From assembly GCA_027487215.1 (NCBI GenBank), contig JAIYDZ010000007.1, positions 66,961-130,960 of the forward strand: 64,000 bases of DNA, written 5' to 3'. How positions within the stretch are numbered: the first letter of the stretch is position 1; the number at the start of each line of letters is the position of its first letter. A program made the translations under genes and the position numbers. Below are positions 15,693-56,175 of this stretch, in pieces. The DNA comes from Pseudomonadota bacterium (lineage in GTDB: Bacteria > Babelota > Babeliae > Babelales > CAIQNR01). Below the pieces are notes generated by a model, which was not told where the DNA came from, searched no databases, and was given only the letters and a program-made list of their open reading frames with translations.

Positions 15693-16598
15693 ATGATTTC
15701 TATATTTATTCTTTATGCTTTGTTTGGTAGTACATTTACCATCGGTAAAGAAGCTATTGCACACATTCCGCCAATTTTCTTTATTGGTCTGCGTATGATT
15801 TTAGCAGGCATTTTACTTATTGGATTTGTAAAATTTTATCAAAAAAAATCAGTCCGTATAAAATCAAAAGATTTGATTCTCGTGGGACTGGTAGCTTTTT
15901 TCCAATTCTATCTTTCTTTTGTTTTAGAATTTGTTGCACTTGATTATTTACCCTCATCAAAAGTTGCACTTCTTTATAATACTTCACCATTTATCACAGC
16001 TTTTCTTTCATATTTATTCTTTAGTGAAGTAATGACCTTTAGAAAGTGGATTGGACTGATTGCAAGCTTTCTTGCCTTTATACCCTTAATCATGGAAACA
16101 GCTGACGGTAAAGAACTTGCCTTGGGTGCAATCGGTTCATTTTCAATTCCAGAAATTTTGCTACTTACTGCCGTAGTAGCCTCATGTTTGGGATGGATTG
16201 CAATGAGACCTTTAACACGAGACCACAGCAATTCCTATATTCTTATTAATGGTGTTGCCATGCTATGGGGCGGTGTTCTTGCATTAGGAACAGCATTCTT
16301 TTATGAACCAATTCCTAGCCTTGAATCTCTTGTTTCAACCCCTGTATTAATTTCTATGGGACTATTAATTTTAATTGGAAACGTTATCTGTTTTAACTTA
16401 TACAGCAAATTATTGCGAACTTATTCGCCAACGCTACTGTCATTTTTTGGTTTTTTTGCACCACTCTTTACAGCACTTTTTAGCTGGTGGTGGTTTGGTG
16501 AACATATTTCACCTGCATTTTACCAAACAACAATCCTCGTAATTATAAGCTCTTATTTCTTTTACCAAGAAGAGCTCAAACAAGGATATATCCTGTAA
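15693..16598 (+). CDS. EamA/DMT-family transporter
   Basis: Ten TM helices. FGSTFTIGKEAI, LRMILAG and ALDYLPSS are typical EamA motifs. Confidence 0.8.
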   Translation: MISIFILYALFGSTFTIGKEAIAHIPPIFFIGLRMILAGILLIGFVKFYQKKSVRIKSKDLILVGLVAFFQFYLSFVLEFVALDYLPSSKVALLYNTSPFITAFLSYLFFSEVMTFRKWIGLIASFLAFIPLIMETADGKELALGAIGSFSIPEILLLTAVVASCLGWIAMRPLTRDHSNSYILINGVAMLWGGVLALGTAFFYEPIPSLESLVSTPVLISMGLLILIGNVICFNLYSKLLRTYSPTLLSFFGFFAPLFTALFSWWWFGEHISPAFYQTTILVIISSYFFYQEELKQGYIL

Positions 16599-16622
16599 TT
16601 TAATATTTTAAGTAGTTTTTAA

Positions 16623-16660
16623 AAATATACCGAGTGTAGTTATTTATACTCGGTATATTT
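16623..16660. terminator. bidirectional stem-loop terminator between convergent genes
   Basis: AAATATACCGAGT (16623-16635) pairs perfectly with ACTCGGTATATTT (16648-16660). A-run on the left and T-run on the right. The right arm overlaps the last codons of the minus-strand gene. Confidence 0.6.
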
Positions 16661-17002
16661 ATTTGATCGGCCTTTACATTTTTCTACCGGATATTTTTGA
16701 GCATTTTTAGCTATCTTGTTTTCAATAGCCTGAGCCAAATCAATTCCAGTAGCATTGGCAAAACAAAGTGCCAAAACTACAATATCAGCAATTTCATCCT
16801 GAACTTCAATCATTTTTTGACTTACTACTTCTTTACTCTCTTTAGAATTACACCACGTAAAAATCTCCATAAGCTCAGCTGCTTCAACTGAAAGTTTCAT
16901 ACTTAGATTTTTTGGAGTGTGAAATTGATTCCATTCTCGTTCATCATTAAATGCTTTTACGACGTTCTTAAGCTGCGCAAAAGTTGTTTTAGAATCATTC
17001 AT
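16640..17002 (-). CDS. MazG-like nucleoside-triphosphate pyrophosphohydrolase (dCTPase/YpjD-like)
   Basis: FNDEREWNQFHTPKNLSMKLSVEAAELMEIF....EVQDEIADIVV is the all-alpha MazG EExxE...D metal-site pattern. ATG 17002 preceded by AGAGGA. Confidence 0.75.
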   Translation of the reverse strand: MNDSKTTFAQLKNVVKAFNDEREWNQFHTPKNLSMKLSVEAAELMEIFTWCNSKESKEVVSQKMIEVQDEIADIVVLALCFANATGIDLAQAIENKIAKNAQKYPVEKCKGRSNKYTEYK

Positions 17003-17086
17003 AGTAAGTCCTCTTTTGTACATTTTTTTAAGATTTCGTATACTGTGACGATACTATACATTAAGGTTTTGAGGAATAAAAGTCTT

Positions 17087-18499
17087 ATGAACAAGCTCCC
17101 AAATATAAAAACGCACTTTCCTGAATGGTACCAAGAAGTTATTTATCAAGCAGAACTGGTTGACCAGGCACCCGTAAGAGGATGCATGGTCGTAAGACCC
17201 TATGGTAATGATATCTGGGAAAGCATTAAAGGGGTCATGGATAAAAAGATCAAAGATACTGGTCATAAGAACGCAATTTTTCCTCTCTTGATACCACAGT
17301 CGTTCTTGCAAAAAGAAGCCGATCATATTGAAGGGTTTGCGCCTGAGGTTGCAGTTGTAACCCATGCTGGCGGTAAAGAACTGGCAGAGCCGCTCATTGT
17401 AAGGCCAACTTCAGAAACAATTGTGCATTTTATGTTTGCGCGCTGGATTAAATCATGGCGTGATTTACCTTTAAAAATTAATCAATGGGCTAACGTAGTG
17501 CGTTGGGAAATGAGACCGCGTGCATTTATAAGAACAACTGAATTCTTTTGGCAAGAAGGCCATACAGCGCATGCTGCTCGCAAAGAAGCTGAAGAAGAAG
17601 TTCTTTTAATGTTATCTCATTATAAAGATTTAGCTGAAAACTATTTGGCAATTCCGGTTATCATCGGTCGCAAATCAGAAGGTGAGAAATTTCCTGGCGC
17701 AGAGAAAACCTACACCTTTGAAGGGTTTATGCCTGATGGTAAGGCATTGCAAATGGGAACCTCTCATTTGCTTTCTCAAAGCTTTGCTCACGCATTTGAA
17801 ATGACTTTCCAAGATGAACAAGGAACTGTACAGCATCCATGGCTTACCAGTTGGGGCTGTACTACTCGCCTAGTGGGCGCTTTAGTCATGGTCCATGGTG
17901 ACGACAAAGGTCTTGTGCTTCCTCCTCGCATTGCGCCAATTCAAGTAGTTATTGTACCAATCTATAAAACAGATGAGGACAAAAAACTTGTCCTTGATAA
18001 AGCCCAAGAAATTAAAAATCAGTTAGGAGAGGGTGTTCGTACCCTTATTGACACTGATGACAAAAAAACTCCAGGCAATAAATTCTATCATTGGGAGCTG
18101 CGCGGTGTTCCAGTTCGCATAGAGATCGGACCACGAGATCTTCAAAATAATCAGGTTACCTGTGCCGATAGACTAGGAATAAAAGAAGCTGTAAGCCTTG
18201 ATACTATTATTCAATATATTCCTCAAAAACTCGATGCGCTCCATCACGCTTTGTATGATCGTGCAAAAAACAGACTAACTGAACAATGGATACAACGAGA
18301 AACGCTTCAAGAAATTTTAGATGGCTCAGAAGCCACACTCACTCAAACAGGTTTTTGTGAAAGTAGGCCATGCGAAGTAGTTCTTAAAGAACATAAACTT
18401 TCAATTCGCTGCCTTCTTGAAGAAGAAAAAAAGCATACTACCTGTTTTAACTGTAAAGCTCCAAGTACCAAAGACGCTATCATAGCTCGTTCATACTAA
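17087..18499 (+). CDS. proS: prolyl-tRNA synthetase, archaeal/eukaryote-type (no INS editing domain)
   Basis: FPEWYQEVI...VRGCMVVRPYG, RPTSET, class II motifs, an anticodon-binding domain, and a C-terminal Cys-containing domain ending in Tyr (ARSY). ATG 17087 after GAGGA. The track's 5' extension overlaps the divergent gene. Confidence 0.93.
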   Translation: MNKLPNIKTHFPEWYQEVIYQAELVDQAPVRGCMVVRPYGNDIWESIKGVMDKKIKDTGHKNAIFPLLIPQSFLQKEADHIEGFAPEVAVVTHAGGKELAEPLIVRPTSETIVHFMFARWIKSWRDLPLKINQWANVVRWEMRPRAFIRTTEFFWQEGHTAHAARKEAEEEVLLMLSHYKDLAENYLAIPVIIGRKSEGEKFPGAEKTYTFEGFMPDGKALQMGTSHLLSQSFAHAFEMTFQDEQGTVQHPWLTSWGCTTRLVGALVMVHGDDKGLVLPPRIAPIQVVIVPIYKTDEDKKLVLDKAQEIKNQLGEGVRTLIDTDDKKTPGNKFYHWELRGVPVRIEIGPRDLQNNQVTCADRLGIKEAVSLDTIIQYIPQKLDALHHALYDRAKNRLTEQWIQRETLQEILDGSEATLTQTGFCESRPCEVVLKEHKLSIRCLLEEEKKHTTCFNCKAPSTKDAIIARSY

Positions 18500-42446: not shown

Positions 42447-45400
42447 TTAATTACGCTCTGCAAATGCTGGTATTAAAGCCGGTACAGCAAGAAGAAGTGC
42501 TGGCTTTGTTGCAGATACAGTAATACCACCTAACTTTCTTTCAATGCCACGCATGGTCATCGCATCAAGAACATCTCCTGTTGGTACACCATTGGTATCA
42601 TATAAAATGCCTCCAGGAGAACTATCAGTTGAATATGAAACATATCCTTCTTTTAAAGAATCTCCATAGGTTTCATCTGAAGACAGAACATATAAAAGCG
42701 TTCCGGTTGCACTGTCAAAACGGAGTCGATTTACTGCTTTTTCAAGTGCATTACATTTTTGTGTAAGTTCATTAAGTGCTTGTCCACTCTGTTCTTGTAA
42801 ACTTTTTTCAACCTCAGCACCATTTGCGTATGCCTGTTGTTGAAGCACTGCTGTTTGTTTTTGTAAAGCTTGATCAGGCGTAGCTTGTTGACTTGCACTG
42901 TTTGTTTGCAACGCGTTAATTGTTTGTGCTTTATTTTTTTGCACCTGTGCAATTGCTTTGTCATAAAAGTTTTTAATAGTGTCTAACGCACTTGCTTTGT
43001 ATTGACTATAATCACTATCACCTTGCTTAAGCGCAGACAAATCAACTTTCTGAAGGGAGGAAGAGTTAACCTGTTTAACAAGAGTTAATCCACCCTCATT
43101 TGATATAACCAACTTAAGCTTTAAAACCTGTAACAATTTAGCAACATCAGCAGTTACAGTGCTTGGATATTCATAACCATATACTTGTTGTTTAGTAAGT
43201 TCATGGTCGTACATAATCATATAATTAATATCATTAGGATATTGAGTACCTGATGAACTCGCGGTAGCACAACCAGGAATTGAAGAAAGCGCAGCGCTCT
43301 CAGCACGACATTGTAAAAGCGGAGAAACTGCTTGGACTACACTCAGTGAGGCGGTACGATTTTTATAATCAGCGCCTGTTTTTGCATCAAATCCAAAATA
43401 TTTTCCGCGATACATAACACCAGTAATTTTACCTTTAGTAGAAGAATTATCACGATTATCAACATATGCGATACTGCGTAAAAACTCTGAATCTGCAATC
43501 GAATCCTCTACAAAACTAAGAGCTTGATTACCTTGAGATTTGGCAACGCCAAGATGACTTAATACATAAGAACTGACAAAAGATTCACCTGTCTTAGTAA
43601 CGACTGGTTTAAAACTACCAATCAACGATTGTTCATCTTGATAAAGCGTCCACTCATCTTTGCCAACATTATAATACGCATCAAGGGTGACTAAAGAACT
43701 GGCGCTTGTTACATTGCTCATGCGATAAATCTTTTGAGAAAGCTTCATGCCTTCCTTCTTAAGATCATTAGTTGCTTTTGCAAAATTAGTAGACATACGC
43801 GTATCAAGAGTGTCAACACTCATCTGCGCATTCGTTTCAGGATCAGTTATAGTTTGTGCTGGAACAGTTTCATTCCATGTTTTGAGTATTTGGTTAGGCG
43901 CTTTAGGATCAACTGCATAGACCGATCCGTCAATTTTATACGTTTGTGGATTGAGGTAAGTAAGATTATAGGTTTTAGTAGCATCACTATATTGATAACT
44001 CACTCTACCACTCTGAGTAATAAATTCATTAAACACGAGCGAACTTGCATCAGTAAATGAACCTGAAACGGGAACAACTAATCGCATTTGTCCATCTGAA
44101 TTTCCCCATACTGTCAAAGGAGCTGTCATTAATGGTGTACCATCTTTGCCTAATGGCAGATAAGTGTCTGTTTGAGTAGATGCTGGTTGCCCGTCTGCAC
44201 TGTACTCAAATCCTGTTACCAAACTAAGATAAGAGTAACTACCATTAGCACGATTTATTTGTAATAAAATATCTGAAGGACGCTTTTGATCAACGATCTT
44301 CATATCTTTTGGTGTAAGATCCTTAGTAGTAGGAGTCTCAAAATTAACAATGTTTTTGTAAAGATAATAAGCAACACCGGTCGATGTTTTTAGTCCTTGT
44401 TCTGTATCAACCAACTGCATAAATTTACCATTTTTACCACCACCTAAGGACTTATCATCTGATGACATCGAAAGTGCTGTACGTGCTACTGGAAATGCTT
44501 TTGTTTGGGTAGAGCCATCATCTGAAACAATAATACCTTGCGCTAACGCCATTGCTCGGGCAGTTCCTGAGCCAAGCACGCTTTGTGGAATCATTTTTCC
44601 ATTGGATCCGATTTTACAATGCAAACCGGTTGGAACTTGATTGATAAGCGCATCAGAAGACTTTGCGATATTAAATGCGTAGTAATTAACCGGCTCATCT
44701 GTTTTTTGTGCAGATTGATCAATATCTTCTGGGCGAATCTCTTTCAAGAAAAACTGTTGTGTTGCACTGTCATAATACATTCCACGAGAACCTTGCACAG
44801 GTTTTAACTGGGAAATATTTGGAAATTTATAGTCATTTGCTCCTGATTGTAATGCTTCAAATACTTTCTGTTGATAACTTTTTTGACCAGATTCCTGTGT
44901 TTTCTCTTTTTCAAGTTGTGCAAGTTGGCCATCAACATATTTTTTATTTGCCGCTGAAAGCGCTGATTGCAGTTCTGCTCTAACCGGCGACCCACTTGCC
45001 TTTGTTATATAATCAACCATTTGTCTATCAAATCCAAGCAGTGTCATCTTACTTTTATCCAGAGGCAATATTTGATCAGCATACGTTTGCATAGAACCAT
45101 CTGCTCCCACAAACGCATTTTCTGAACCTGAACGGGTGTATTGTATTGATGAAACAAAACTTAAAATACTACGAGTGGTATTTGAAAGAGGGAAGTTAAC
45201 CATATCACCATCAGTTGCGACAAAGTAGTCATAAACATCTGGATTATTAAGAGTCCCGTTATAAGCCTGATAGATATAGTTACCATTATTACTATCTTTT
45301 CTTTCTATAAACATCATAAACGGGCCAAATACAAAGGGTCCCATTTTATCAGCTGTCTTACCATCCTGCAGAGTATCAACACGAACTTGTAACCCATCAG

Positions 45401-48400
45401 GTAAAACTTTACGACCAACATTTTTTAAAACACTCTCAATAACATTAACAGGATTAAACGTGTAAGCTTGACCTCTAAAGTTTACAATCGGAATCACTCG
45501 TTCAGTGTTGGTGGTTTTGTCAAAACAACGGACGAGAACAGAACCTGTTCCTATATTAACAAGAAGGTTAAGCGACTTATTATTTACAAAATTAGTACCA
45601 AGATCAGTTAGCGCACTCAGCAGAATCTCTTGTTGAGCAATAAGCACTTCAAAAGTTTTTCCATCAGCTAAAGCAGGCATTCCGACCGCACGCGCAGTAG
45701 ACATAAACTCTGATCCTGTTGCATAACGTAATGACGAAGGAAGTTCACTGATACTTAATGCACTTGCTCCTAGCTTGCCAGCAACCCACCATCCTTGAAG
45801 GGGCATTCCAACAGGCGAGGTCACTGTATACAAGAATAAATCTTCTGTTAATGAACTTTGATCTGCCGCAATGCTCCATCCTTGTGCTGTAAAATCATGC
45901 GGACCTTCTGATAAAATCATACTCCATTTTTTTTCTGGAGTTTGAGTATCCTTAAGCAATGCTTGGCGCCACAAAGTATGAACCTGTGTAAAGGTATAAT
46001 TTTCTTTTTGAGTATCTTGAGCAACTTTACCTTCTTGGGCAAGCGCTTTTTCAAGTGCAGCCATATCTTCTGTTTCTGGACTTGTAATACCAGTCAGAGC
46101 AACCGGCAATATTTCAAGTAATGAAACAGGCAATGTTTTGATATTTTTTTGATTTACACTACTTACAAAAGCACCCTGAGTTGCTTGATCTGTGACTGAC
46201 TGTACCGTGTAATCATAACGCAATGTTAAGAAATGAAATGGCGACATCTTAACGACATCTGCTTGACTGCGTGTACTGTTAATCGGATTTAAATCTGATT
46301 CTACAAACGCCGTTGCAAGAGGAACAGCTTTACCGCCATCCTGAATCTCATACCCATTACTGCAACGTGCTGGATTACTTGCACAAGGGCGCGGTTTGCC
46401 CGCAGCATCAGCAACCACAAGATCAGTCACCACACTTTTTGGAAATAAATTATAAGTAGGATCATATACTTTTGAAGTCACTAAACTGATAAGTGCTGTT
46501 ACTTTTGATGAAATATGAGGCAAGCTCATACCACTTGAAACTTCTGCTTGTGAGCCAAGCGACACGTTTAAATAATTACCGGTAGCATGATTGATCGTAA
46601 CAGGAATAACATAATCAGGGAGTGTGTGTGCACCTTCTGGACTTGATAATGCATTGTCTATTCTATAAATATAAAGACTTTTAAGAACTTCACGTTTATC
46701 GCTTACGTTCATGCCGCTCGATTTTTGATCTTTTTCAGACTGGCCAGCTTTTCCTAATTCTTGAACATTTTTAGTATTCTCAAAAGCAGCATCAATACCT
46801 GCATCTATTTTAAGATCAAGTTCTTTTACTAAGTGAGCAGTTAAACCATCTCGCAATACAAATGGACCTTGTGTAATAACATTTTTTGCAAACGAACGCA
46901 TTGCGCCAATCTGATTTAGCAGTAAGCGTCTTGTACCATATAATGATTGAAAATTACTCATTACTTTATTTGTTACTGTCTCATAATCAGCTGAACCATC
47001 TTGTGTACGCAGCAGTGTCGGTTGTGCACCAGGAATAAAGGTTGCACCAGTTACTAAACTTACTAAATACGCAATATCTTTATTAGAAACAAATTCAACA
47101 ACAGGAGCTCCAATTGCGCCCTCTTTGTTAGAGTTAATATGTGGTACTTGTGCAGGAATGATGTTATTACCTATATCAACAGCAACAAGATAATCCCAGA
47201 CACAATCTTTTAGTGATGGAGAAACAATCGATTTGATAAATCGTGCAGCAGGAGTGCTATCAGTTTGATAGACGTATACTTGCTGTGCTAATAAATGAGC
47301 ATCATATACATCTCCACCAACGCCAAGCCCCGCACTATTTCCTGTAATTTTTTCTGTAGGAATAACAGGATTATTTTCTTGCACAATAATTTGCGCGCGC
47401 TGACCGTTTTGTAATCCCTTTAGTATATTGTTACCCAGATCACGCTCAGTTCCATTAGTTTCAAACAAATCAGCATAGTGTGACAATGCGTAGGTCATTG
47501 CTCCCAATGGCGCAATACCTTGCACATGAATTCCAAATTCAGAAAGATTAATCCCATCTTTAAAAACATCCAATGTTTGTTGTAATAACGGAGAAATATG
47601 AGTAGTAGAATCGGGAACAAACAATGCTTGAATTGATGCATCAGTTGCGCCACTAAACCAATGTTTCCCCATACTGTTTGGGTTTATGCTTAAGGTAGAT
47701 TTTTGTACTCTAATGTCTCCTGATAAAGAACGTACTTTATCATCAAGCATGCTTTGAATAACAAGTTCTTTTCGTGAAGAAGTAGATTCTTTTTCTGAAG
47801 AAAGCAATGGATAAACTTTTGTAATAACACCAGCACCATTAATAACAGCACCTGTCTTTAGTTCAATGACATCTGTTACTTTACCAGAGTTAACATAGTC
47901 CATTCCAACTTCTTGATATTGATTAAGAGACATAAAGAATCGACGTGACTGTGATTTTAAACCGCTTGCCCATGGTGAGTCAGCATAGATAAAAGTACCA
48001 CTTAACGGATCTTTAAACATAACCGTTCCTGGTAAAACTTTCATAATGATAGTACCAAATTGTGCACGTGCAGTAATGGTATTATAAAGCGCTGTCGCAG
48101 CTTGCTCTTCTTGCATCTGTCTCCATATTTCTCCCGGCAAAGGGAAGATAAGAGCCATACCAACTTGATCACCTAAGAATTTACCAAACCCCTTCACTCC
48201 TCGGCCAAGGGTATTCCAAAAACCAAGATGATCGTCAATATAATTAACCATTTCATGCTCAGCAGCAATTTTTGACTCTAGAGCCTCTTTTTGTTTGATT
48301 AAAGATTCACGGTCTTCAAATTTTTTAACACGCGTTTCTATTTCTTCTGAAGTTAACTTACCTTCTTTTTGTAAGTTTTCACGAAACTCCTCAGAAGTTT

Positions 48401-49460
48401 TAGATGCTTTAGTTTGTGTAGACAATTCTTCTTCACGAAGTTTTATAAGTTTTTCTTCTGCAGAAAGACCTTCTAATTCATTTATTTTGGATTTAAACCC
48501 TAGTTCTTCATCGAGTCCACGAATCTGTTGTTCAAGATCAGCCGACTGTCTTTCATAACTACTAATACGATCTTTTGACGCTGCACGAGTTTCTTTTAAC
48601 CGCTCTCTTGTTTTTTGCGCTTCAAAACCCTTTTTTGCTTCCGTAACTTGTTCTTGTGCTTGTGCTCTATTTTCCTGAGCAGCATTTAATTCTTCACGAG
48701 CTTTCATGCGAGCGTTCCGTGCTGAATCTAATGCTTCTTGTGATTGCTTAAAAGCTGCTTCTTCTTGTTCAAAAGAAGCGTTTGCACTCTTTTTTGCTTG
48801 TAATTCTTTAGTGGTTTTTTCATGCACTGATTGTGCTTTATTAAAATCCTGTTCGGCACTTTTTAACTCTGACTGAGCTTCTTTAACTCGTGCTTCAGTG
48901 AGTTTAACTTCAGTTTTTGCTTGTACATAGTCTTCAGTTACTTGTCTAAAACTACCCTCAGGAGCGCCCGCAGAAACACCATCTTTTTTTAAATTTTCTG
49001 ATGATGGAGGTACTTCTGATAAAGATTCAGAATTGGTAACAGAATCTGTTAAATTTTCTGGTTTATTTAAAGATGATTCTGAAGGAACTGGTTGCATTTC
49101 AGCAGGAACTTGGGGAACTTCAAGATTTTGTTCATTAAAACGTGCTGATTGTAGTTGCTCTTCAGCTAGAGTTTGATTTTGAACTTCTAATTGTTGGCCC
49201 TCAAGTTGCCCAATCTCACCTTCTGCTTTGTTACCGATACTTTGTAAAGCTTCTTGTTCAAGGGCTTCACGAGATGCTACGCTAGCTGCCTCAGAACTTG
49301 GATTAAGATGACCAGCCATTCCCTCTTCAAGGGTTCTTCCAATAGCAGCTTCTTCACCTTCAAGAGCTGCGGCAAACTCGCCTGCCATAATCATTTGAGA
49401 ACATAAAACAACCAACTGAACTACTAAGAATAAACTTATTTTATTGAAAGGCCTTTTCAT
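42447..49460 (-). CDS. giant secreted protein (~2337 aa), unknown function
   Basis: Single uninterrupted frame. ATG 49460 lies 6 nt after GGGGG (the track start 49466 abuts the RBS). Signal peptide ...VVLCSQMIMAG. E/K/Q-rich coiled coil at about nt 48266-48959. No internal repeat or known motif. A second coiled coil lies near the C-terminus. Hydrophobic tail KPALLLAVPALIPAFAERN. Confidence 0.85.
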   Translation of the reverse strand: MKRPFNKISLFLVVQLVVLCSQMIMAGEFAAALEGEEAAIGRTLEEGMAGHLNPSSEAASVASREALEQEALQSIGNKAEGEIGQLEGQQLEVQNQTLAEEQLQSARFNEQNLEVPQVPAEMQPVPSESSLNKPENLTDSVTNSESLSEVPPSSENLKKDGVSAGAPEGSFRQVTEDYVQAKTEVKLTEARVKEAQSELKSAEQDFNKAQSVHEKTTKELQAKKSANASFEQEEAAFKQSQEALDSARNARMKAREELNAAQENRAQAQEQVTEAKKGFEAQKTRERLKETRAASKDRISSYERQSADLEQQIRGLDEELGFKSKINELEGLSAEEKLIKLREEELSTQTKASKTSEEFRENLQKEGKLTSEEIETRVKKFEDRESLIKQKEALESKIAAEHEMVNYIDDHLGFWNTLGRGVKGFGKFLGDQVGMALIFPLPGEIWRQMQEEQAATALYNTITARAQFGTIIMKVLPGTVMFKDPLSGTFIYADSPWASGLKSQSRRFFMSLNQYQEVGMDYVNSGKVTDVIELKTGAVINGAGVITKVYPLLSSEKESTSSRKELVIQSMLDDKVRSLSGDIRVQKSTLSINPNSMGKHWFSGATDASIQALFVPDSTTHISPLLQQTLDVFKDGINLSEFGIHVQGIAPLGAMTYALSHYADLFETNGTERDLGNNILKGLQNGQRAQIIVQENNPVIPTEKITGNSAGLGVGGDVYDAHLLAQQVYVYQTDSTPAARFIKSIVSPSLKDCVWDYLVAVDIGNNIIPAQVPHINSNKEGAIGAPVVEFVSNKDIAYLVSLVTGATFIPGAQPTLLRTQDGSADYETVTNKVMSNFQSLYGTRRLLLNQIGAMRSFAKNVITQGPFVLRDGLTAHLVKELDLKIDAGIDAAFENTKNVQELGKAGQSEKDQKSSGMNVSDKREVLKSLYIYRIDNALSSPEGAHTLPDYVIPVTINHATGNYLNVSLGSQAEVSSGMSLPHISSKVTALISLVTSKVYDPTYNLFPKSVVTDLVVADAAGKPRPCASNPARCSNGYEIQDGGKAVPLATAFVESDLNPINSTRSQADVVKMSPFHFLTLRYDYTVQSVTDQATQGAFVSSVNQKNIKTLPVSLLEILPVALTGITSPETEDMAALEKALAQEGKVAQDTQKENYTFTQVHTLWRQALLKDTQTPEKKWSMILSEGPHDFTAQGWSIAADQSSLTEDLFLYTVTSPVGMPLQGWWVAGKLGASALSISELPSSLRYATGSEFMSTARAVGMPALADGKTFEVLIAQQEILLSALTDLGTNFVNNKSLNLLVNIGTGSVLVRCFDKTTNTERVIPIVNFRGQAYTFNPVNVIESVLKNVGRKVLPDGLQVRVDTLQDGKTADKMGPFVFGPFMMFIERKDSNNGNYIYQAYNGTLNNPDVYDYFVATDGDMVNFPLSNTTRSILSFVSSIQYTRSGSENAFVGADGSMQTYADQILPLDKSKMTLLGFDRQMVDYITKASGSPVRAELQSALSAANKKYVDGQLAQLEKEKTQESGQKSYQQKVFEALQSGANDYKFPNISQLKPVQGSRGMYYDSATQQFFLKEIRPEDIDQSAQKTDEPVNYYAFNIAKSSDALINQVPTGLHCKIGSNGKMIPQSVLGSGTARAMALAQGIIVSDDGSTQTKAFPVARTALSMSSDDKSLGGGKNGKFMQLVDTEQGLKTSTGVAYYLYKNIVNFETPTTKDLTPKDMKIVDQKRPSDILLQINRANGSYSYLSLVTGFEYSADGQPASTQTDTYLPLGKDGTPLMTAPLTVWGNSDGQMRLVVPVSGSFTDASSLVFNEFITQSGRVSYQYSDATKTYNLTYLNPQTYKIDGSVYAVDPKAPNQILKTWNETVPAQTITDPETNAQMSVDTLDTRMSTNFAKATNDLKKEGMKLSQKIYRMSNVTSASSLVTLDAYYNVGKDEWTLYQDEQSLIGSFKPVVTKTGESFVSSYVLSHLGVAKSQGNQALSFVEDSIADSEFLRSIAYVDNRDNSSTKGKITGVMYRGKYFGFDAKTGADYKNRTASLSVVQAVSPLLQCRAESAALSSIPGCATASSSGTQYPNDINYMIMYDHELTKQQVYGYEYPSTVTADVAKLLQVLKLKLVISNEGGLTLVKQVNSSSLQKVDLSALKQGDSDYSQYKASALDTIKNFYDKAIAQVQKNKAQTINALQTNSASQQATPDQALQKQTAVLQQQAYANGAEVEKSLQEQSGQALNELTQKCNALEKAVNRLRFDSATGTLLYVLSSDETYGDSLKEGYVSYSTDSSPGGILYDTNGVPTGDVLDAMTMRGIERKLGGITVSATKPALLLAVPALIPAFAERN

Positions 49461-49602
49461 GGACATCCCCCTTTTTCACCACCTTTTTACAGTGGTCTCC
49501 ATCTATTGATATAGTTTCAGGGTAATCAATCAAAGAGCCGATCTACAAGTATTTTAGATAGTCAGCCTTAAATATGCTTATTTATGTAAAAACAATTTAT
49601 CA

Positions 49603-51099
49603 TTATTTATCGGTAAATTGTTTCATAAAGTCATAAAGCTGTGTTCTATCCATAACATCACTTGTTCTTCCGACCACTTTGCCTCTCTTAAGAACTACAA
49701 AGTGAGGAACTGAGGGAGCGTTATAACGTTTTACAATATCAAACGCAATTGCCGCATCAACCTTAAAAAATACTGCTTTTTCTGAAAGCTTTGTTGCCGC
49801 CCACTGTACCACCGGCAACATGTGCATACATGAAGGACAGGTTGAAGCATAAAAATCAAGTACAATAAGCTTCTCTGAACCTATGTCTTCAATATATTCA
49901 TCAAGAACACCTGTTGAAGTAATAGACTCAACTTCAATCTTATTATCAAGCTGTGGATCAAAAAAGAATGGCTCCAGTTTTTGAGCCACTTGCCCATTAA
50001 AACCAATATCACTGAGCCACCACATGGCATCAAGACCAGCCTTAATGCCATCTCCAGCTGCAACGCCTGCCTGTTTATAACGAGGATCAGAAACATCTCC
50101 TGCAGCAAAAACCCCTGCTAACGAAGTTTCTTGAGTACGGCCTTTTAAGGTGACATATCCCATAGAGTCAGTTTGAACGTAGTCTTTAACCATATGACTA
50201 TTAGGACTATGACCAATTGCTAAAAAGACTCCTCGTACATTTTCCCAGAAATCTCTTGCCTTAGTTTCTGTATTAACAATGTCAACGCCACTGACATGGC
50301 CATCAACGCCATGAATCTTAGTAACTGCATAATTATACATTACTTTAACGTTAGAGCACTGCTTAAGCCTTTCTGCCATTGCTGGAGACGCCCTCATTAC
50401 AGAACCTCGAACAAGCATTCTTACTTCACGAGCATATGCAGAGAGCTCTAAACATTCTTCTACGGCAGAATCTCCACCACCAATAACAACAACTGTATCA
50501 CCCTTATGATAAGGAGCATCACAAATTGCACAGGTGGTTACTCCATGCCCCCAGTATTCACTTTCACCAGGAACGTTTAACTTTTTAGGAGTTGCCCCTG
50601 TTCCTACAAAAAGAGAAAGTGCATGAAGGGTCTTTCCTTCTTCTGTTTTGACTGTATAAGGCCACGAGCTTAAATCAATACTTACCGCCGCATCGCTGAC
50701 CATAATAGCCCCAAAACGAGCAGCCTGAATCTCAAAATCTTTTACTACCTCTGCACCACGAATTTTCCTGATTGCTGGCCAGTTTTCAATATAAGAAGTA
50801 CCAGTTAACTGGCCCCCTGGTTGATTACCTTTTAAAACAACGGTTCTAATACGTGTCCGAGCCCCATAAAGTGCAGCCGCCAAAGAAGCTGGACCTGAAC
50901 CCAAAACAAGAAAGGGAACAAGATTGTCCATCCCTATTATTTTATCGATATTAATATCGCCTGCCTCAACAGAAGGTCCTCTTTTTACTTTTGCAGCTTG
51001 ATTACTATGCGGGTAATACTTCCAAAAAAAGCCTCCTGCAGCCCCTATAAAAAGAACTACCCCTAACAATGCTGCCAGCTTTTTTTCCGTAATGAACAT
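49603..51099 (-). CDS. trxB: membrane-anchored thioredoxin reductase fused to a C-terminal thioredoxin domain
   Basis: ATG 51099 follows GGAGG. TM helix LAALLGVVLFIGAAGGFFW, FAD site LVLGSGPASLAAA, redox CAIC (nt 50521-50532), VIGGGDSAVEE and GVFAAGD. Then a Trx fold with CPSC (nt 49828-49839) in LIVLDFYASTCPSCMHM. Confidence 0.85.
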   Translation of the reverse strand: MFITEKKLAALLGVVLFIGAAGGFFWKYYPHSNQAAKVKRGPSVEAGDINIDKIIGMDNLVPFLVLGSGPASLAAALYGARTRIRTVVLKGNQPGGQLTGTSYIENWPAIRKIRGAEVVKDFEIQAARFGAIMVSDAAVSIDLSSWPYTVKTEEGKTLHALSLFVGTGATPKKLNVPGESEYWGHGVTTCAICDAPYHKGDTVVVIGGGDSAVEECLELSAYAREVRMLVRGSVMRASPAMAERLKQCSNVKVMYNYAVTKIHGVDGHVSGVDIVNTETKARDFWENVRGVFLAIGHSPNSHMVKDYVQTDSMGYVTLKGRTQETSLAGVFAAGDVSDPRYKQAGVAAGDGIKAGLDAMWWLSDIGFNGQVAQKLEPFFFDPQLDNKIEVESITSTGVLDEYIEDIGSEKLIVLDFYASTCPSCMHMLPVVQWAATKLSEKAVFFKVDAAIAFDIVKRYNAPSVPHFVVLKRGKVVGRTSDVMDRTQLYDFMKQFTDK

Positions 51100-51210
51100 T
51101 CGCTCCTCCGTATCCACGATGAAAACACGAGATTTTGGTTTATTGTGCGCCAGTATATCAAAAAGAATTAATAAAGATGACCTTATTTTATAAAAGTCGC
51201 TAAAGGGTCT

Positions 51211-51239
51211 TTGACAAGCCCTTACTGGTCACGTATTCT
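51211..51239 (+). promoter_or_regulatory. candidate sigma70-type promoter of the FtsH-like gene
   Basis: TTGACA (51211-16), a 17-nt spacer, then TATTCT (51234-39), about 60 nt upstream of ATG 51298. Confidence 0.4.
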
Positions 51240-51297
51240 TTAAATACTTTTCATAAAAAAATGACGGCTCTCAAAGCCATAAAATAGGGGTGTTTTT

Positions 51298-54200
51298 ATG
51301 CTGTTAACTCGGATGTTAAATAAGCTTATTAAGAAAATTTTTTTTATAGCGCTCTGTACTCTTTCTTTCAATTCAACCTACGCATTACTGCCAATGAGAA
51401 TGGGGCTAGAAAATCAAGCGTCCGCCTTAGATGAAGACAAAGTGCTTCAAGCTCGAGTCCTTCAACAAATTGACGCTCTCTTACTGTTTATTCCTTCAGC
51501 CGGCTCACGCCTACAAACACTCAAGCTTTCAAAAGAAAAAGTAACTGAAATTAGAGAAATGCTTACCGATCTTCAAAAAAGTTTACAACTTCACAAAGCA
51601 CGCGCAACATTCAATGCAGACAAAGAAAAACTGGCAAAACTTTCACTTTTGCTCAATGGTCTTACCAAAGCAATCCATGTATCTCTAACAAAATCATTTT
51701 CAAAAATGCCAGATGTCAATCCCGCAGACATCAATCGATCGATCAAAGAGATAACGCCCGAACAAATGAATCAGTTGATGGAAGAAACTGAGAAAAATTT
51801 AAATGACTTTCAGCACCTTGTTAACAACATGGGAAAAAACATTTTTAATCGTTGGTACACCAAAGCATCAGACTGGTGGAATAAACCCTTATTTACAATT
51901 TCTTCATTCAGCCAAAAAAACGCTCAAGTCTATCCCTGGTCAATTGTTAAACGCGCATTTTCTTACAGTGGCACTATTGCTTTAACAGTACACAATTTAC
52001 CTGAAGCGCAGCTGCAATCAATTTCAAACAGTTACGTACGATCATGGGCACTTGCCATTAAAGGATTAGTCGGCGATTCTCCTATTGCAACTCAAATAAG
52101 CAAACATGAAAAATATCATGAAGTAAAAGTCGACGAAGATTATGGGTGGACAATTGGAGGAACCACTCTTCCACACAATACTTCACAAGAAAAAATTATA
52201 TATGAAGACGGCTTAAATCCAATTGATCAACAAGGATTACCTCTTGCCTATTATATGACTACCCCTGAAGGAAGAACTTGGAACGAAAAATCCTATATAT
52301 CGCTTACTATTGAAAACGGAAAAATTACTCCTAAAAAAGCTTTAGAAGATGGAAAAAGATATTTTGTTGATGCTGGCAACGGTATGACGATCCCTTTTAA
52401 TAACACAGATGCCGAGATAATTTTAGGATCTCTCCAATTTAAAGGTCGCACTCTATTTGAACCATTCCCAGTACCAAAAGAAAGTCTCGTAAGAAGCTTC
52501 TTTGGTGAAACAACAAACAAAAAAACATACAGAGAACTTCTAGAAATCTTAAACAATAAAACTATTGCTCAAGATTTCGAAAAATTTACAAGAGCTACAA
52601 TGATAACAGACACTTCTAATGGACGTGTTCTTCAAGAATTTGAACCCGGCAGATTTAGATTCCTTGGAACTAACATTCCAGCTATACCATCTTCTGACAC
52701 TCTAAATAATCCAAATCGTATACTTCCAACTTTCAATGCCTGGAATAAAGATTTTCAATGGGAAGGTAAAACAATCGATCCCCTTCTTGTTAATCAAACT
52801 AATAAAGGCGAGCTCGCTCAATCTGTTGATAGCTCTGAGCCATTTGATAAATCTCCTCGCACTGGTGTTCTTAACTTTATCCGTAATAACTTGAGTTTTC
52901 TTGCTCATATTGATTTTAAAGCTAATTTTTTAAACGTCGCAGTAGGACCATTTGTTGCAAAACAAATTTACGATGACATTAAAATTCTTAAGGAAGAACT
53001 TCCCCTTGTTGCTGCTAACGTGCATAGAAAATTACGTGGTGAACAAGGAACATTCGTAAAAGCAAACGAACAAGAAACACCAAAAGAAACATTCGATGAT
53101 ATCGTAGGAAGAGAAGATATCAAAAAACAACTCCAACCTATTATTGATTTTGTTTCAAATCCAGAACGCAGCATTCAAGAAGGAATTGCAATTCCTCGCG
53201 GCTACCTTTTTGCGGGTGAACCTCAAACTGGTAAAAGTTTAATGGCTAAAGCTGTAGCAGGAGAAATTGCTAAAGCACTTACCGCTCAAGGTAAAAAAGA
53301 ATGTAAATTCTGGGCGCTTGATGTTGGATTTCTTATGACTAATGGTATTGGTTATTGCGTGGAATATATTAAGGCATATAACCTTGCTCCATGTGTACTT
53401 TTCTTAGATGAATTTGATTTAACCGGTGCTCAACGTAATGAAAATAAAAAATTCTTAGCAGATGCTTTAACTGCTATTAATGGATACACAACTTCCTCTG
53501 ATTTAAGTGAACTTATTATCTTCATTATTGCAACCAATAGACCAGAACATATCGACTATGCAATTCGTGCAGATGGTCGTTGTGGCACTATGATCTACTT
53601 TGAAAATCCTTATTATGATGCGCGAAAAAACTTTTTCAAAAGCTTCTTTGAAAAAAGATTTTTTGACCTCAATAATTTTGATCTTGATGTCTTAGCACAA
53701 GAAACGGAAGCCTGTTCCTATAGCACACTTACAAAGATTATCGAACAGACTGCAAGCATTGCAAAAAACAAAGCTGAAATACCATCACAAAAACATGCAA
53801 ATGAAGCTCTTGATATCGTAGTGCGAAAAGTAATTGCCGACGCTGATGAAATTCCTCAAGAAAAACGTCAAGTCATTGCTGCTCGCTATGGGGCTAAAGC
53901 ACTTGCGTCAGTCACCTTATCGCCAGAGAAGAAATTCACTGGTGTCAGCATTATGAAAATGACTGAGAAAATTAAGGAAAAACACGTACTACAACATTAT
54001 GAAGCCGTCGCTGATGCTGATGAAAAAACAGGTGTTCGTTTTGGTGGAATCTTTAGTTACCACAGTATTGATACCTATCATCTGATTTCAAATGCAGAAC
54101 GTATTAAAGAGTGTAAAATTGCTATTGCAGGAACAGTAGGCCAAAAAGTACTTGGGCTTGATTATATTGCATATGGAGAAGATGAAACAGAAGCACTTAC

Positions 54201-54726
54201 AATCGCACGACGTATCATCTTTAATGGATGTGATGAAAAACTATTACCTCGCAAAATAAGAGAACAAAAACTAGAGCAAGCATATTTGCTTGTGGAACAC
54301 TGTCGCAAAGAGATGGAAGAACTCATTGAATCTCGCAAGCAAGAGTTTGCGCACTTTGTAGACCTTCTACAACGTCGTCAGGTGCTGCGTGCAAGTGACG
54401 TGAAACAATGCTTTAAATTGAATAACTTTGATTTAATCAGCGATTATTTTGCTACACAAAAACCTGGTCATCCTGACGCTCAACCTTCTAGTGTTTCTTT
54501 CACTCAAGCTTCAAGTGAACTAAGTGGTCCAAGCAATCTTCCTGAATATACCACAGAAGATGAAGAACTTGATGCAATTGAGGAAGAAGAAGAAGAAGAG
54601 AACCAATCAATTGCCGGTCACACGATTTCTAGAGTTGCAAATGTTTCTCAAGATATTGCACGCGAAGAAGAAAAGAATAAGCAAGAAGAAAACCGTCAGA
54701 GCCAAGATCAGTTAAACGACGAGTAA
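51298..54726 (+). CDS. FtsH-derived AAA+ ATPase with degenerate M41 protease domain and long N-terminal extension
   Basis: N-terminal hydrophobic segment. Walker A GEPQTGKSLMAKAVAGE (nt 53215-53238), Walker B CVLFLDEFD (53395-53418) and IIATNRPEHID. The HEAGH position reads ARYGAK (53884-53898). Acidic tail EDEELDAIEEEEEEEN. Confidence 0.8.
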   Translation: MLLTRMLNKLIKKIFFIALCTLSFNSTYALLPMRMGLENQASALDEDKVLQARVLQQIDALLLFIPSAGSRLQTLKLSKEKVTEIREMLTDLQKSLQLHKARATFNADKEKLAKLSLLLNGLTKAIHVSLTKSFSKMPDVNPADINRSIKEITPEQMNQLMEETEKNLNDFQHLVNNMGKNIFNRWYTKASDWWNKPLFTISSFSQKNAQVYPWSIVKRAFSYSGTIALTVHNLPEAQLQSISNSYVRSWALAIKGLVGDSPIATQISKHEKYHEVKVDEDYGWTIGGTTLPHNTSQEKIIYEDGLNPIDQQGLPLAYYMTTPEGRTWNEKSYISLTIENGKITPKKALEDGKRYFVDAGNGMTIPFNNTDAEIILGSLQFKGRTLFEPFPVPKESLVRSFFGETTNKKTYRELLEILNNKTIAQDFEKFTRATMITDTSNGRVLQEFEPGRFRFLGTNIPAIPSSDTLNNPNRILPTFNAWNKDFQWEGKTIDPLLVNQTNKGELAQSVDSSEPFDKSPRTGVLNFIRNNLSFLAHIDFKANFLNVAVGPFVAKQIYDDIKILKEELPLVAANVHRKLRGEQGTFVKANEQETPKETFDDIVGREDIKKQLQPIIDFVSNPERSIQEGIAIPRGYLFAGEPQTGKSLMAKAVAGEIAKALTAQGKKECKFWALDVGFLMTNGIGYCVEYIKAYNLAPCVLFLDEFDLTGAQRNENKKFLADALTAINGYTTSSDLSELIIFIIATNRPEHIDYAIRADGRCGTMIYFENPYYDARKNFFKSFFEKRFFDLNNFDLDVLAQETEACSYSTLTKIIEQTASIAKNKAEIPSQKHANEALDIVVRKVIADADEIPQEKRQVIAARYGAKALASVTLSPEKKFTGVSIMKMTEKIKEKHVLQHYEAVADADEKTGVRFGGIFSYHSIDTYHLISNAERIKECKIAIAGTVGQKVLGLDYIAYGEDETEALTIARRIIFNGCDEKLLPRKIREQKLEQAYLLVEHCRKEMEELIESRKQEFAHFVDLLQRRQVLRASDVKQCFKLNNFDLISDYFATQKPGHPDAQPSSVSFTQASSELSGPSNLPEYTTEDEELDAIEEEEEEENQSIAGHTISRVANVSQDIAREEEKNKQEENRQSQDQLNDE

Positions 54727-54796: not shown

Positions 54797-54919
54797 ATGA
54801 CTTTCATAGCACATCTTTTTCAATTTAAGCTCGAAAACTCTGATGCCTTGCAGTGATAGTATTCTTTTTTATACAGTAAACATGTAGGGGAAAGTATCTA
54901 AATGGTGGGGGAGGCTCTC

Positions 54920-55519
54920 ATGAAAAAATTTTTATTCTTTATCTTCTTTTGTATTATTGCGATCAATGATGGAAAAATAAAAGCAGCACAAATTTCGTTA
55001 GACCAACAGTTAACAGGACTTACCAATGCACTTGCCACTAAAAACTATTTTTCAGCCTCAGAGGCTCTTAAAAATCTTACTGCCATTCTGAAAACAAAGG
55101 TACAATTTTCCCTTAAAGGTGGGGAATCGAGCTTTTACACCTATGTTTCTAAGAGTGTTGATGTTGGTGATGTTATGAGACCTGATGTTCAGAAAGCACT
55201 CCATGAAGTGTTTGACTGTATCGACAAGGTCCAAAAAGTAATAGATGAAATTTCTAATGTTTACCGAACAAACTCTTTGTTACTTACACAAAATATTAGC
55301 AACACAATGAGGCTCAACCAAATAAATCTCAAAGAAATCCTCTCAAAGCAGATCCAAAACTCAAACCCAGCAGTCAGAGGATTTGAGATGCTTGGATTTA
55401 ATCTCCTAGTAATGACCGCCTATCAAGAGTTTACGTCTGTTGCGTATCAATTTATAAGAGATGTTCTGCGTGCACAAACTGACTACATTCTCTTTGAACG
55501 ATATACACCTAAAAAATAA
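54920..55519 (+). CDS. secreted helical hypothetical protein, tandem paralog A
   Basis: ATG 54920 after GGGGGAGG. The N-terminus ...FFCIIAINDGKIKAAQI and the C-terminal block LSKQIQNSNPAVRGFEMLGFN...QFIRDVLRA are shared with the next gene. Confidence 0.6.
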   Translation: MKKFLFFIFFCIIAINDGKIKAAQISLDQQLTGLTNALATKNYFSASEALKNLTAILKTKVQFSLKGGESSFYTYVSKSVDVGDVMRPDVQKALHEVFDCIDKVQKVIDEISNVYRTNSLLLTQNISNTMRLNQINLKEILSKQIQNSNPAVRGFEMLGFNLLVMTAYQEFTSVAYQFIRDVLRAQTDYILFERYTPKK

Positions 55520-55566: not shown

Positions 55567-56175
55567 ATGAATAAATCTCTTATCTATAGTTTTCTTTGTA
55601 TTATTGCAATCAACGATGGCAAAATAAAAGCCGGTCAAATTGACGGCGCAACAATTAATGAAAAACAACAGGTAGAACTCTTAAAAAATGCTCTTACTCA
55701 AAACAAACTGAATGATGCGCATGATGCACTCAAAAAACTAACGGCAAGACTTAAATTTAAAGCGTATTCTACTTTAAATGATAAATCTGCAGGGCTTTAT
55801 ACCTATCTTAAAACACCACCTGAACAACAAAAACTTATAAAAGATTCCACTGAAAAAATATTACACGAAATGTATGAATTTATTGAGAGCGTTAAAGCAG
55901 TGATGGATCCTGCTCTTGAAGTTGCAAAAAGTCATGCTACTTTACTTGCAACAATGATGAATACTTATAAAGATGGTCCAGAGATGGCACTCAAAGAAAC
56001 GCTTTCAAAGCAACTGCCAGCATCAAACCCTGTAGTAACCGTATTTGATACGTTACAATTTAATACACTTACTAAACTGTACTATGAAGAGTTTGTAACG
56101 GTAGCAAATCAGTTTGTCAGAGATGTTATGCGAGCAACAATCGACTTTGTAACTTTTGGTGGCCATAAAGCTTAG
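55567..56175 (+). CDS. secreted helical hypothetical protein, tandem paralog B
   Basis: RBS GGGGG. ...FLCIIAINDGKIKAGQI and LSKQLPASNPVVTVFDTLQFN...QFVRDVMRA are colinear with paralog A. Confidence 0.6.
   Translation: MNKSLIYSFLCIIAINDGKIKAGQIDGATINEKQQVELLKNALTQNKLNDAHDALKKLTARLKFKAYSTLNDKSAGLYTYLKTPPEQQKLIKDSTEKILHEMYEFIESVKAVMDPALEVAKSHATLLATMMNTYKDGPEMALKETLSKQLPASNPVVTVFDTLQFNTLTKLYYEEFVTVANQFVRDVMRATIDFVTFGGHKA

Follow-up and report, generated by a model that had tools for sequence, protein, structure and literature searches.

An FtsH-derived, predicted non-proteolytic AAA+ ATPase with an expanded N-terminal region, and its family across the Dependentiae

What becomes of an FtsH-type protease once its protease site, and possibly also its grip on the substrate, has been given up? 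The question is raised by a gene in a 64,000-nucleotide stretch of a Babelales genome (assembly GCA_027487215.1, contig JAIYDZ010000007.1, forward-strand positions 66,961 to 130,960; this whole stretch is hereafter called the window, and positions are given in its numbering). An original prediction, made from the sequence alone, had described the product as an AAA+ protein derived from FtsH, with intact ATPase motifs, a dead protease site, an altered pore loop and an N-terminal extension of about 590 residues. The protein, here called pseudo-FtsH, does descend from FtsH and has lost its catalytic site; both points can be considered established by profile comparison (hhalign), motif alignment and a fold search (Foldseek) that extends over both domains. 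It is probably, with a confidence somewhat better than even, a membrane-associated, ring-forming AAA+ ATPase that no longer cleaves peptides and has no canonical pore-loop grip. It is no singular oddity, being one of a large family whose synteny is kept across the Dependentiae.

The open reading frame is present exactly as predicted, and the parts on which the question of ancestry turns are the following.

51298 to 54726, plus strand: coding sequence of the FtsH-derived AAA+ pseudoprotease, 1142 residues plus stop, uninterrupted
53065 to 53847, plus strand: AAA+ module, residues ~590-850, large subdomain plus helical lid (Pfam, NCBIfam, model)
53848 to 54447, plus strand: pseudo-protease domain with the Peptidase_M41 fold, residues ~851-1050 (hhalign, Foldseek)

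Colinearity with FtsH had been claimed for residues ~590-880, and the searches agree, with homology to the M41 domain continuing beyond. The segments on which the claim was based lie in the protein as described: ETFDDIVGREDIKKQL...GEPQTGKSLMAKAVAGE at residues 597-656, CVLFLDEFD at residues 699-707 and IIATNRPEHIDYAIRADGR at residues 743-761. Pfam reports a single AAA domain and no other (residues 637-769, E 4.7e-17, 63 bits against a cutoff of 21.2). The best NCBIfam model is FtsH_fam TIGR01241 (E 3e-32), which is colinear over residues 588-888 and reaches 112 bits against a family cutoff of 600, while PRK10733 reaches 73 bits against 1008. When the sequences of the PDB are searched, the FtsH of Aquifex aeolicus (4ww0) aligns as a single stretch over residues 588-886 (92 bits). 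An identity as CDC48/p97 was considered and rejected. Specifically, p97 tops the whole-sequence phmmer totals in the PDB because both of its AAA domains match the one domain of the query; per domain it scores 87.6 bits versus 91.9 bits for FtsH, which is also favoured by the NCBIfam result, by the fold search and by the M41 domain.

Taken alone, pseudo-FtsH has no match to the Pfam model Peptidase_M41 even at E <= 10. Its relatives P0006 and P0005, whose alignments with it cover 82-95% of the AAA and C-terminal parts, score 28.2 and 25 bits on PF01434, P0006 covering profile positions 2-190 of 191. A profile of 150 C-terminal domains of the family was compared by hhalign with one of 45 canonical FtsH M41 domains from the fetched genomes, and the two match with a probability of 99.5% (E 6.7e-23, 165 columns), the family domain carrying a 23-residue insertion relative to canonical M41. 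This pseudo-M41 domain is the best conserved portion of the protein. An AlphaFold2 model of residues 555-1060 (monomer, 67-sequence alignment) has a predicted local distance difference test score (pLDDT) of 90.1 and a predicted template modelling score (pTM) of 0.84. The top 50 Foldseek matches of this model in the PDB all belong to the FtsH family and extend over 440-590 columns and both domains; they include bacterial FtsH, human AFG3L2, yeast YME1 and the Ycf2-FtsHi motor of Arabidopsis and Chlamydomonas (for 3kds_F, TMq is 0.69 with a root-mean-square deviation of 4.2 Å; for 6nyy_B, 0.71 with 3.8 Å). The structural scores do not single out any one of bacterial FtsH, the mitochondrial AAA proteases and FtsHi.

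Which activities have been kept can be judged from the motif columns of 154 sequences aligned to the hidden Markov model of the family. The sites concerned are these.

53215 to 53238, plus strand: Walker A GEPQTGKS, residues 640-647 (Lys in 152 of 152 family sequences)
53320 to 53349, plus strand: remnant of pore loop 1, VGFLMTNGIG, residues 675-684 (motif alignment, model)
53395 to 53418, plus strand: Walker B VLFLDEFD, residues 700-707 (Glu in 153 of 153 family sequences)
53530 to 53580, plus strand: sensor-1 and second region of homology (SRH) ATNRPEHIDYAIRADGR, residues 745-761 (N747, R761)
53884 to 53898, plus strand: dead zinc site R863-Y-G-A-K867, opposite H-E-x-x-H (hhalign, motif alignment)
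54181 to 54183, plus strand: D962, the retained third zinc ligand Asp (hhalign, motif alignment)

The description of the ATPase motifs as intact holds for Walker A, Walker B, the sensor-1 asparagine (N747; 152 of 153 sequences) and the second SRH arginine (R761; 153 of 153), and has to be qualified for the first SRH arginine, which sits one residue off its usual place (at 757, not 758) and differs among family members. In FtsH the second SRH arginine acts in trans, across subunits, and the invariance of R761 therefore points to selection for ATP hydrolysis in an oligomeric ring.

At the zinc site, both histidines and the catalytic glutamate are indeed replaced, as had been read from the pentapeptide RYGAK, and hhalign aligns R863, Y864 and K867 with the H, E and H of HExxH; the third ligand is still present, and this aspartate is found in 114 of the 154 family sequences. 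The catalytic glutamate occurs in three of the 154, all outliers that resemble true FtsH. The commonest states of the site in the family are H-Q-x-x-H (31) and H-F/L/M-x-x-H (30), followed by stepwise degraded versions, and the subfamily of the target reads R-Y/F-x-x-K/Q. Among nine positional orthologs the site reads RYGAK, RQAGK, YQAGK, HIAGK, HMTGH or HLAGT. Since the glutamate is absent from all nine and the aspartate present in all nine, the glutamate was probably lost in their common ancestor and the histidine ligands decayed later.

The loss of the pore-loop aromatic was also borne out. The remnant is modelled as the start of a helix and is without the Ar-Phi-Gly motif (LMTNG, as against MFVG), which is found in 5 of 139 family members versus 53 of 64 canonical FtsH proteins, and the residue preceding the conserved pore-loop glycine is essentially random in the family. 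The segment from Walker B to sensor-1, which carries pore loop 2, has a length of 42 as against 44-47 in FtsH. The pattern of conservation across these columns indicates that selection was kept on ATP hydrolysis in a ring and relaxed on proteolysis and on the gripping of polypeptides.

A word-indexed search returned one relative only. An exhaustive HMMER search over 1.84 billion cluster representatives (50% identity) gave 495 matches at E <= 1e-30, the best 150 of them with scores of 222 bits or more and alignments that span query positions ~595-1045. The size of the family can be put at about 145 to 495 clusters, with at least 145 clusters having the AAA plus the pseudo-M41 domain, and most members are 800-950 residues long. 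This survey for orthologs finds the family spread across the Dependentiae, the named sources being Candidatus Babeliales and Candidatus Dependentiae. Three bins with Pseudomonadota or Proteobacteria labels (L006, L007 and P0272) share the Dependentiae-type gene order around pseudo-FtsH, and the DnaA of L007 is 69% identical to the DnaA of the window; these labels are probably wrong. The public annotation of the family proteins is 'AAA family ATPase' only.

The same phylum also encodes FtsH proteins of a more familiar kind. In Candidatus Babeliales bacterium Gw_Eff_bin_310 (L023, 9641-13174) two canonical FtsH genes stand in tandem (568 and 545 residues), with HEAGH, EMFVG/EMYIG pore loops, RPGRFDR, very short N-termini and a signal-like first transmembrane (TM) helix, TM1. 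In Candidatus Babeliales bacterium Gw_Eff_bin_419, an FtsH-type protein of 529 residues (L010:8226-9815; M41 133 bits) has its EMYVGVG pore loop and RPGRFDR intact and its zinc site dead (YRQAGQ); judged by these motifs, the phylum has here another kind of dead FtsH, one that has diverged much less. As in plastids, loss of the protease has thus gone to different lengths in different FtsH paralogs of the Dependentiae. With FtsH genes that keep HEAGH and the pore loop known from Babeliales genomes, pseudo-FtsH can be taken for an additional paralog, and not for the housekeeping FtsH.

The remainder of the protein is made up of the following parts.

51337 to 51393, plus strand: signal-peptide-like or signal-anchor-like segment, residues ~14-32 (hydropathy, charges)
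51433 to 51882, plus strand: family-wide five-helix module, residues ~46-195 (alignment; AlphaFold pLDDT ~80-88)
51934 to 51996, plus strand: helix a, residues 213-233, positional equivalent of FtsH TM1 (alignment, model)
52075 to 52887, plus strand: beta-rich lineage-specific insert, residues ~260-530 (alignment, lower-confidence model)
52915 to 53037, plus strand: helix b plus juxtamembrane helix, residues ~540-580, equivalent of FtsH TM2, leading into the AAA module (model)
54451 to 54723, plus strand: low-complexity acidic C-terminal tail, residues 1052-1142, in the closest relatives only

The acidic C-terminus that had been noticed corresponds to residues 1087-1102 within this tail, and the hydrophobic segment at the N-terminus was likewise correctly recognised. 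It has counterparts in 112 of 143 family members, with positive charges on its N-terminal and acidic residues on its C-terminal side. The extension of about 590 residues was rightly said to contain no recognised domain, but it is composite and not one block. It has no Pfam or NCBIfam domain and no sequence match in the PDB, and a fold search with Foldseek against the PDB and BFVD gave no credible match (best E 0.04, TMq 0.09). The AlphaFold model of this region is only moderate (pLDDT 68, pTM 0.36), so that the absence of a known fold is a provisional result; with this proviso, the five-helix module, which ends in the motif N-x-x-Y...SD-W-N-x-P, would belong to no known fold or family. The periplasmic domain of FtsH (PF06480) has no match in the target or in the relatives scanned.

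Helices a (213-233) and b (~540-558) are Gly/Ala-rich and TM-like in most family members, and barely hydrophobic in the subfamily of the target (KD17 0.8-1.1; 0.81 for helix a of the target). The loop between them, which matches the FtsH periplasmic loop in position, has a median of 72 residues in the family; in the target's subfamily it has expanded to 230-306 residues and is beta-rich, with weak conservation and many indels. As helices a and b are separated by an FtsH-sized loop, they are read as the equivalents of TM1 and TM2 of FtsH. The variable insert contains the sole HExxH string of the protein, HEKYH (residues 270-274, nt 52105-52119); it was considered as a second active site and rejected, being conserved in no relative and most likely a chance occurrence. 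The exhaustive search also returned P0153, a protein of 551 residues whose match is confined to target residues 13-476 (278 bits) and which is without the AAA part; it could be a fragment from the end of a contig, a copy broken by a frameshift or an N-terminal module that exists by itself.

Hydropathy and positive-inside counts gave no single membrane topology. With helices a and b in the FtsH orientation, both the ATPase and the helical module that follows the signal-like segment would be cytoplasmic. The ATPase would lie outside the cytoplasm if the protein began with a true signal or an N-in anchor and helices a and b either both spanned the membrane or both did not. The cytoplasmic location appears much more likely, as favoured by the FtsH-like geometry of helix a, loop and helix b, by the equally signal-like TM1 of the canonical proteins, and by the rate at which Phobius calls signal peptides in Chromulinavorax destructans (44% of all genes; PMC6561590), which suggests over-prediction in this phylum.

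Upstream of the gene, the signals and the divergent neighbour are as follows.

49603 to 51117, minus strand: thioredoxin reductase-thioredoxin (TrxR-Trx) fusion, NTRC-like (Pyr_redox_2 plus C-terminal Thioredoxin), with an N-terminal TM helix (Pfam, synteny)
51211 to 51239, plus strand: sigma-70-like promoter TTGACA-17-TATTCT of the pseudo-FtsH gene (sequence, orthologous intergenic regions)
51286 to 51290, plus strand: ribosome-binding site AGGGG, 7 nt 5' of the ATG (read from sequence)

Pseudo-FtsH lies head-to-head with TrxR-Trx in all nine of the loci compared (the window, L002, L005-L009, L085 and L086, from independent assemblies), at identities to the target from 63% down to 26%. The intergenic regions (87-287 bp) conserve back-to-back promoter boxes and contain no obvious common operator; the -35 box of pseudo-FtsH, TTTTGACAA, is kept in 6 of 7 orthologous intergenic regions. 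An inverted repeat between the -10 box and the ribosome-binding site (51264-51280, 7-bp stem) was considered as a regulatory hairpin and dismissed, since it is not conserved in these regions. The outer neighbours vary among the loci (a giant secreted protein, gyrA, a hydrolase), with insertions downstream, so that the pair itself is the conserved unit. The charges flanking the TM helix of TrxR-Trx predict a membrane-anchored cytoplasmic enzyme. Redox coupling of pseudo-FtsH to this enzyme would be an attractive idea. Cysteines C806, C939 and C1002 are conserved in half to two-thirds of the family, and a disulfide or metal pair C939-C1002 was rejected, as the two co-occur at chance level (64 observed, 63 expected).

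The wider neighbourhood holds several further observations. Beyond TrxR-Trx, at 42447-49466 on the minus strand, lies a protein of 2339 residues with a signal-peptide-like N-terminus, a coiled-coil-like start rich in Glu, Gln and Ala, and no Pfam domain; weak homologs (24% identity) occupy the same position in L002 and L006. Downstream of pseudo-FtsH, 54902-55519 and 55567-56175 (plus strand) encode tandem paralogs of 205 and 202 residues, 40% identical to each other and with signal-like N-termini. They were considered as conserved partners and rejected, because a homolog was found in the closest relative only (L002, 22%); they appear to be lineage-specific. Within the 64-kb window no second AAA/FtsH gene, no tRNA and no Rfam RNA was found. 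The cumulative GC skew peaks and changes sign at ~16000-18000, and genes lie mostly on the plus strand before ~26 kb, which suggests a replication-related strand switch near ~16000-18000; dnaA (62993 to the window end) is about 46 kb away.

How might such a protein work? Under the reading favoured here, ATP binding and hydrolysis would be retained and peptide cleavage lost. The pseudo-M41 disk would serve as the assembly (hexamerisation) and docking platform of an FtsH-like ring, with R863 and K867 possibly pairing with the retained D962 in the former zinc position. The long helix 543-580 would pass ATP-driven movement on to the N-terminal module or receive it from there, this module being a large part of the protein that is probably extracytoplasmic. 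Pseudo-FtsH would then remodel, help to assemble or regulate proteins of the envelope or membrane without being a processive threading unfoldase, and it could cooperate with the adjacent TrxR-Trx, with active FtsH paralogs or with both.

Several points weigh against this picture. The N-terminus is signal-peptide-like and the internal helices of the subfamily have little hydrophobicity, which leaves room for an ATPase on either side of the membrane. Canonical FtsH is known from other Babeliales genomes, and none lies within the 64-kb window. The link to TrxR-Trx consists of gene adjacency alone, the conserved cysteines being without pairwise covariation. Ring formation, ATPase activity and zinc loss are predicted from sequence and a monomer model. 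Finally, loss of the aromatic pore loop disfavours threading, yet the protein may have other ways of gripping a substrate.

Other explanations have to be weighed against it. That the gene is a fusion artefact, or an FtsH pseudogene in neutral drift, has next to no probability: only the unusual length and the degenerate motifs speak for it. The possibility that the 5' 1.8 kb is a separate gene, joined by an assembly or frameshift error, was examined and rejected, and this part is native, since the same full-length architecture recurs in independent ENA, JGI, Logan and NCBI assemblies. Within the close subfamily it runs without a break in more than 14 clusters, the ATPase residues are conserved at ~100% over 150 clusters, and both promoter and synteny are conserved. 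Pseudo-FtsH could instead join active FtsH paralogs in mixed rings and tune their activity or choice of substrate, and this we hold to be rather unlikely, albeit worth serious consideration. Such paralogs, with HEAGH and intact pore loops, exist in the phylum together with the intermediate dead paralog L010; the M41-fold domain, the part conserved best, is the hexamer interface in FtsH, and the trans-acting arginine is invariant. Other AAA proteases, too, combine inactive with active subunits. Plastids offer a direct precedent in FtsHi with FtsH12 (PMC8197885). Against mixed rings stand the N-terminal architecture, which is far from that of the short canonical Babeliales FtsH (545-568 residues), and an identity to canonical FtsH of ~25-29% only, at which the interfaces may or may not be compatible.

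A translocation motor comparable to plastid Ycf2/Orf2971-FtsHi, that is, an inner-membrane ring exporting effectors or importing host proteins, seems distinctly improbable, even if common FtsH ancestry, a lost HExxH with the ATPase kept, an enlarged N-terminal domain and Ycf2-FtsHi chains among the best structural matches all point that way, as does the obligately intracellular, host-dependent life of the phylum (PMC4776705). The plastid motor keeps a pore-loop aromatic that lines its narrow pore (10.1101/2024.09.02.610899), whereas the Dependentiae family has lost the motif throughout and has both pore-loop segments altered. Moreover, no PF06480 was detected, and there are no translocon or secretion genes in the conserved neighbourhood. 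It is more improbable still that the whole protein is exported by a Sec signal, the ATPase being periplasmic or host-facing and running on host ATP. Plasmodium HSP101, in the PTEX translocon, is a model of an ATPase outside the cytoplasm; we know of no precedent for an extracytoplasmic AAA+ ATPase in bacteria. The signal-like N-terminus, with its charges positive before and negative after, and the want of a further convincing TM helix in the target's subfamily fit export, and three membrane crossings with the N-terminus inside would also put the AAA ring outside. Deeg et al. list an M41 peptidase among the signal-peptide 'secreted' proteins of C. destructans (PMC6561590), and Dependentiae import host ATP through ATP/ADP translocases (PMC4776705), which implies that ATP must reach their periplasm. 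On the other hand, two TM-like helices flank an FtsH-like loop in most members, the canonical TM1 is just as signal-like, the Phobius rate already mentioned hints at over-prediction, and the adjacent TrxR-Trx requires cytoplasmic NADPH. A more daring proposal, which we regard as improbable, makes pseudo-FtsH the ATP-driven core of a new envelope machine that would move or remodel proteins at the parasite-host interface, an independently evolved bacterial analogue of Ycf2-FtsHi or PTEX-HSP101, which may do extracytoplasmic work on host ATP and be redox-coupled to TrxR-Trx.

The preferred reading, a non-proteolytic FtsH descendant at the membrane, has precedents. The plastid FtsHi/Ycf2 proteins are non-proteolytic FtsH descendants with an active ATPase (PMC8197885; 10.1101/2024.09.02.610899), and according to a 2024 review of metallopeptidase pseudoenzymes this plastid group comprises the only M41 pseudopeptidases (PMC11266112). 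The searchable literature contains no paper that pairs Dependentiae, Babeliales, Babela or Chromulinavorax with FtsH. The original prediction that no bacterial protein of this architecture had been described agrees with that literature; it has to be tempered by Mishra & Funk, who already mention a presumably inactive FtsH of Prochlorococcus SS120 (PMC8197885), so that an inactive prokaryotic FtsH is not a wholly new concept. The family is best regarded as an undescribed, phylum-wide bacterial family of putative FtsH-derived pseudoproteases, with the window gene as an unusually expanded member. The turning of FtsH into a non-proteolytic ATPase, known essentially from plastids and their import motor, would now also be found in a whole phylum of intracellular parasites, and the Dependentiae family would go one step beyond plastids, having lost the gripping pore loop as well. 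With its conserved position, the gene is a candidate for the core set of the Dependentiae; it offers an independent natural experiment on the repurposing of an AAA protease, one that could be studied in the few culturable Dependentiae-amoeba systems. A candidate functional pair, pseudo-FtsH and the membrane-anchored NTRC-like TrxR-Trx, can be flagged in a phylum whose biology is almost unknown. Lastly, the annotation 'AAA family ATPase' can be corrected, together with a likely misreading as a 'secreted M41 proteinase', given that Deeg et al. apparently counted an M41 protein among the 'secreted proteinases' of C. destructans (PMC6561590).

Comparison with known systems places pseudo-FtsH as follows. 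With CDC48/p97/VAT it shares an AAA module of the classical clade, but it has a single such module, no CDC48 N domain (double-psi barrel) and an M41-fold C-terminus. With canonical FtsH (4ww0 of A. aeolicus, 2ce7/3kds of T. maritima) it shares the colinear AAA plus M41 body, the N-terminal hydrophobic segment, the third ligand Asp and, in most family members, two TM-like helices flanking a loop of ~70 residues. It differs in reading RYGAK for HExxH, in having no pore-loop aromatic and a displaced first SRH arginine, and in its additions, namely a helical module of ~170 residues, the ~300-residue loop expansion in the target and the 23-residue M41 insertion. The FtsH of Prochlorococcus marinus SS120, mentioned in one sentence by Mishra & Funk 2021 (PMC8197885), is comparable in being prokaryotic and presumed protease-inactive; that mention gives no hint of the N-terminal module, the pore-loop loss or the phylum-wide synteny that mark pseudo-FtsH. 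The likeness to plastid FtsHi and Ycf2 that had been suggested proves apt, those proteins being among the top structural matches (8xku, 8xqw, 8xks). Like pseudo-FtsH, FtsHi1-5 and Ycf2 (Orf2971) have one AAA+ module with Walker A, Walker B and the arginine finger intact, an M41 fold without a functional HExxH and enlarged, divergent N-termini, and they occur alongside active FtsH paralogs. Unlike the plastid motor, which keeps the aromatic (10.1101/2024.09.02.610899), the Dependentiae family has lost Ar-Phi-Gly; it is also without a detectable FtsH_ext, and it has a novel helical module before TM1 and a pairing with TrxR-Trx. Its lineage is bacterial and not that of plastids, and the protease was presumably lost independently in the two.

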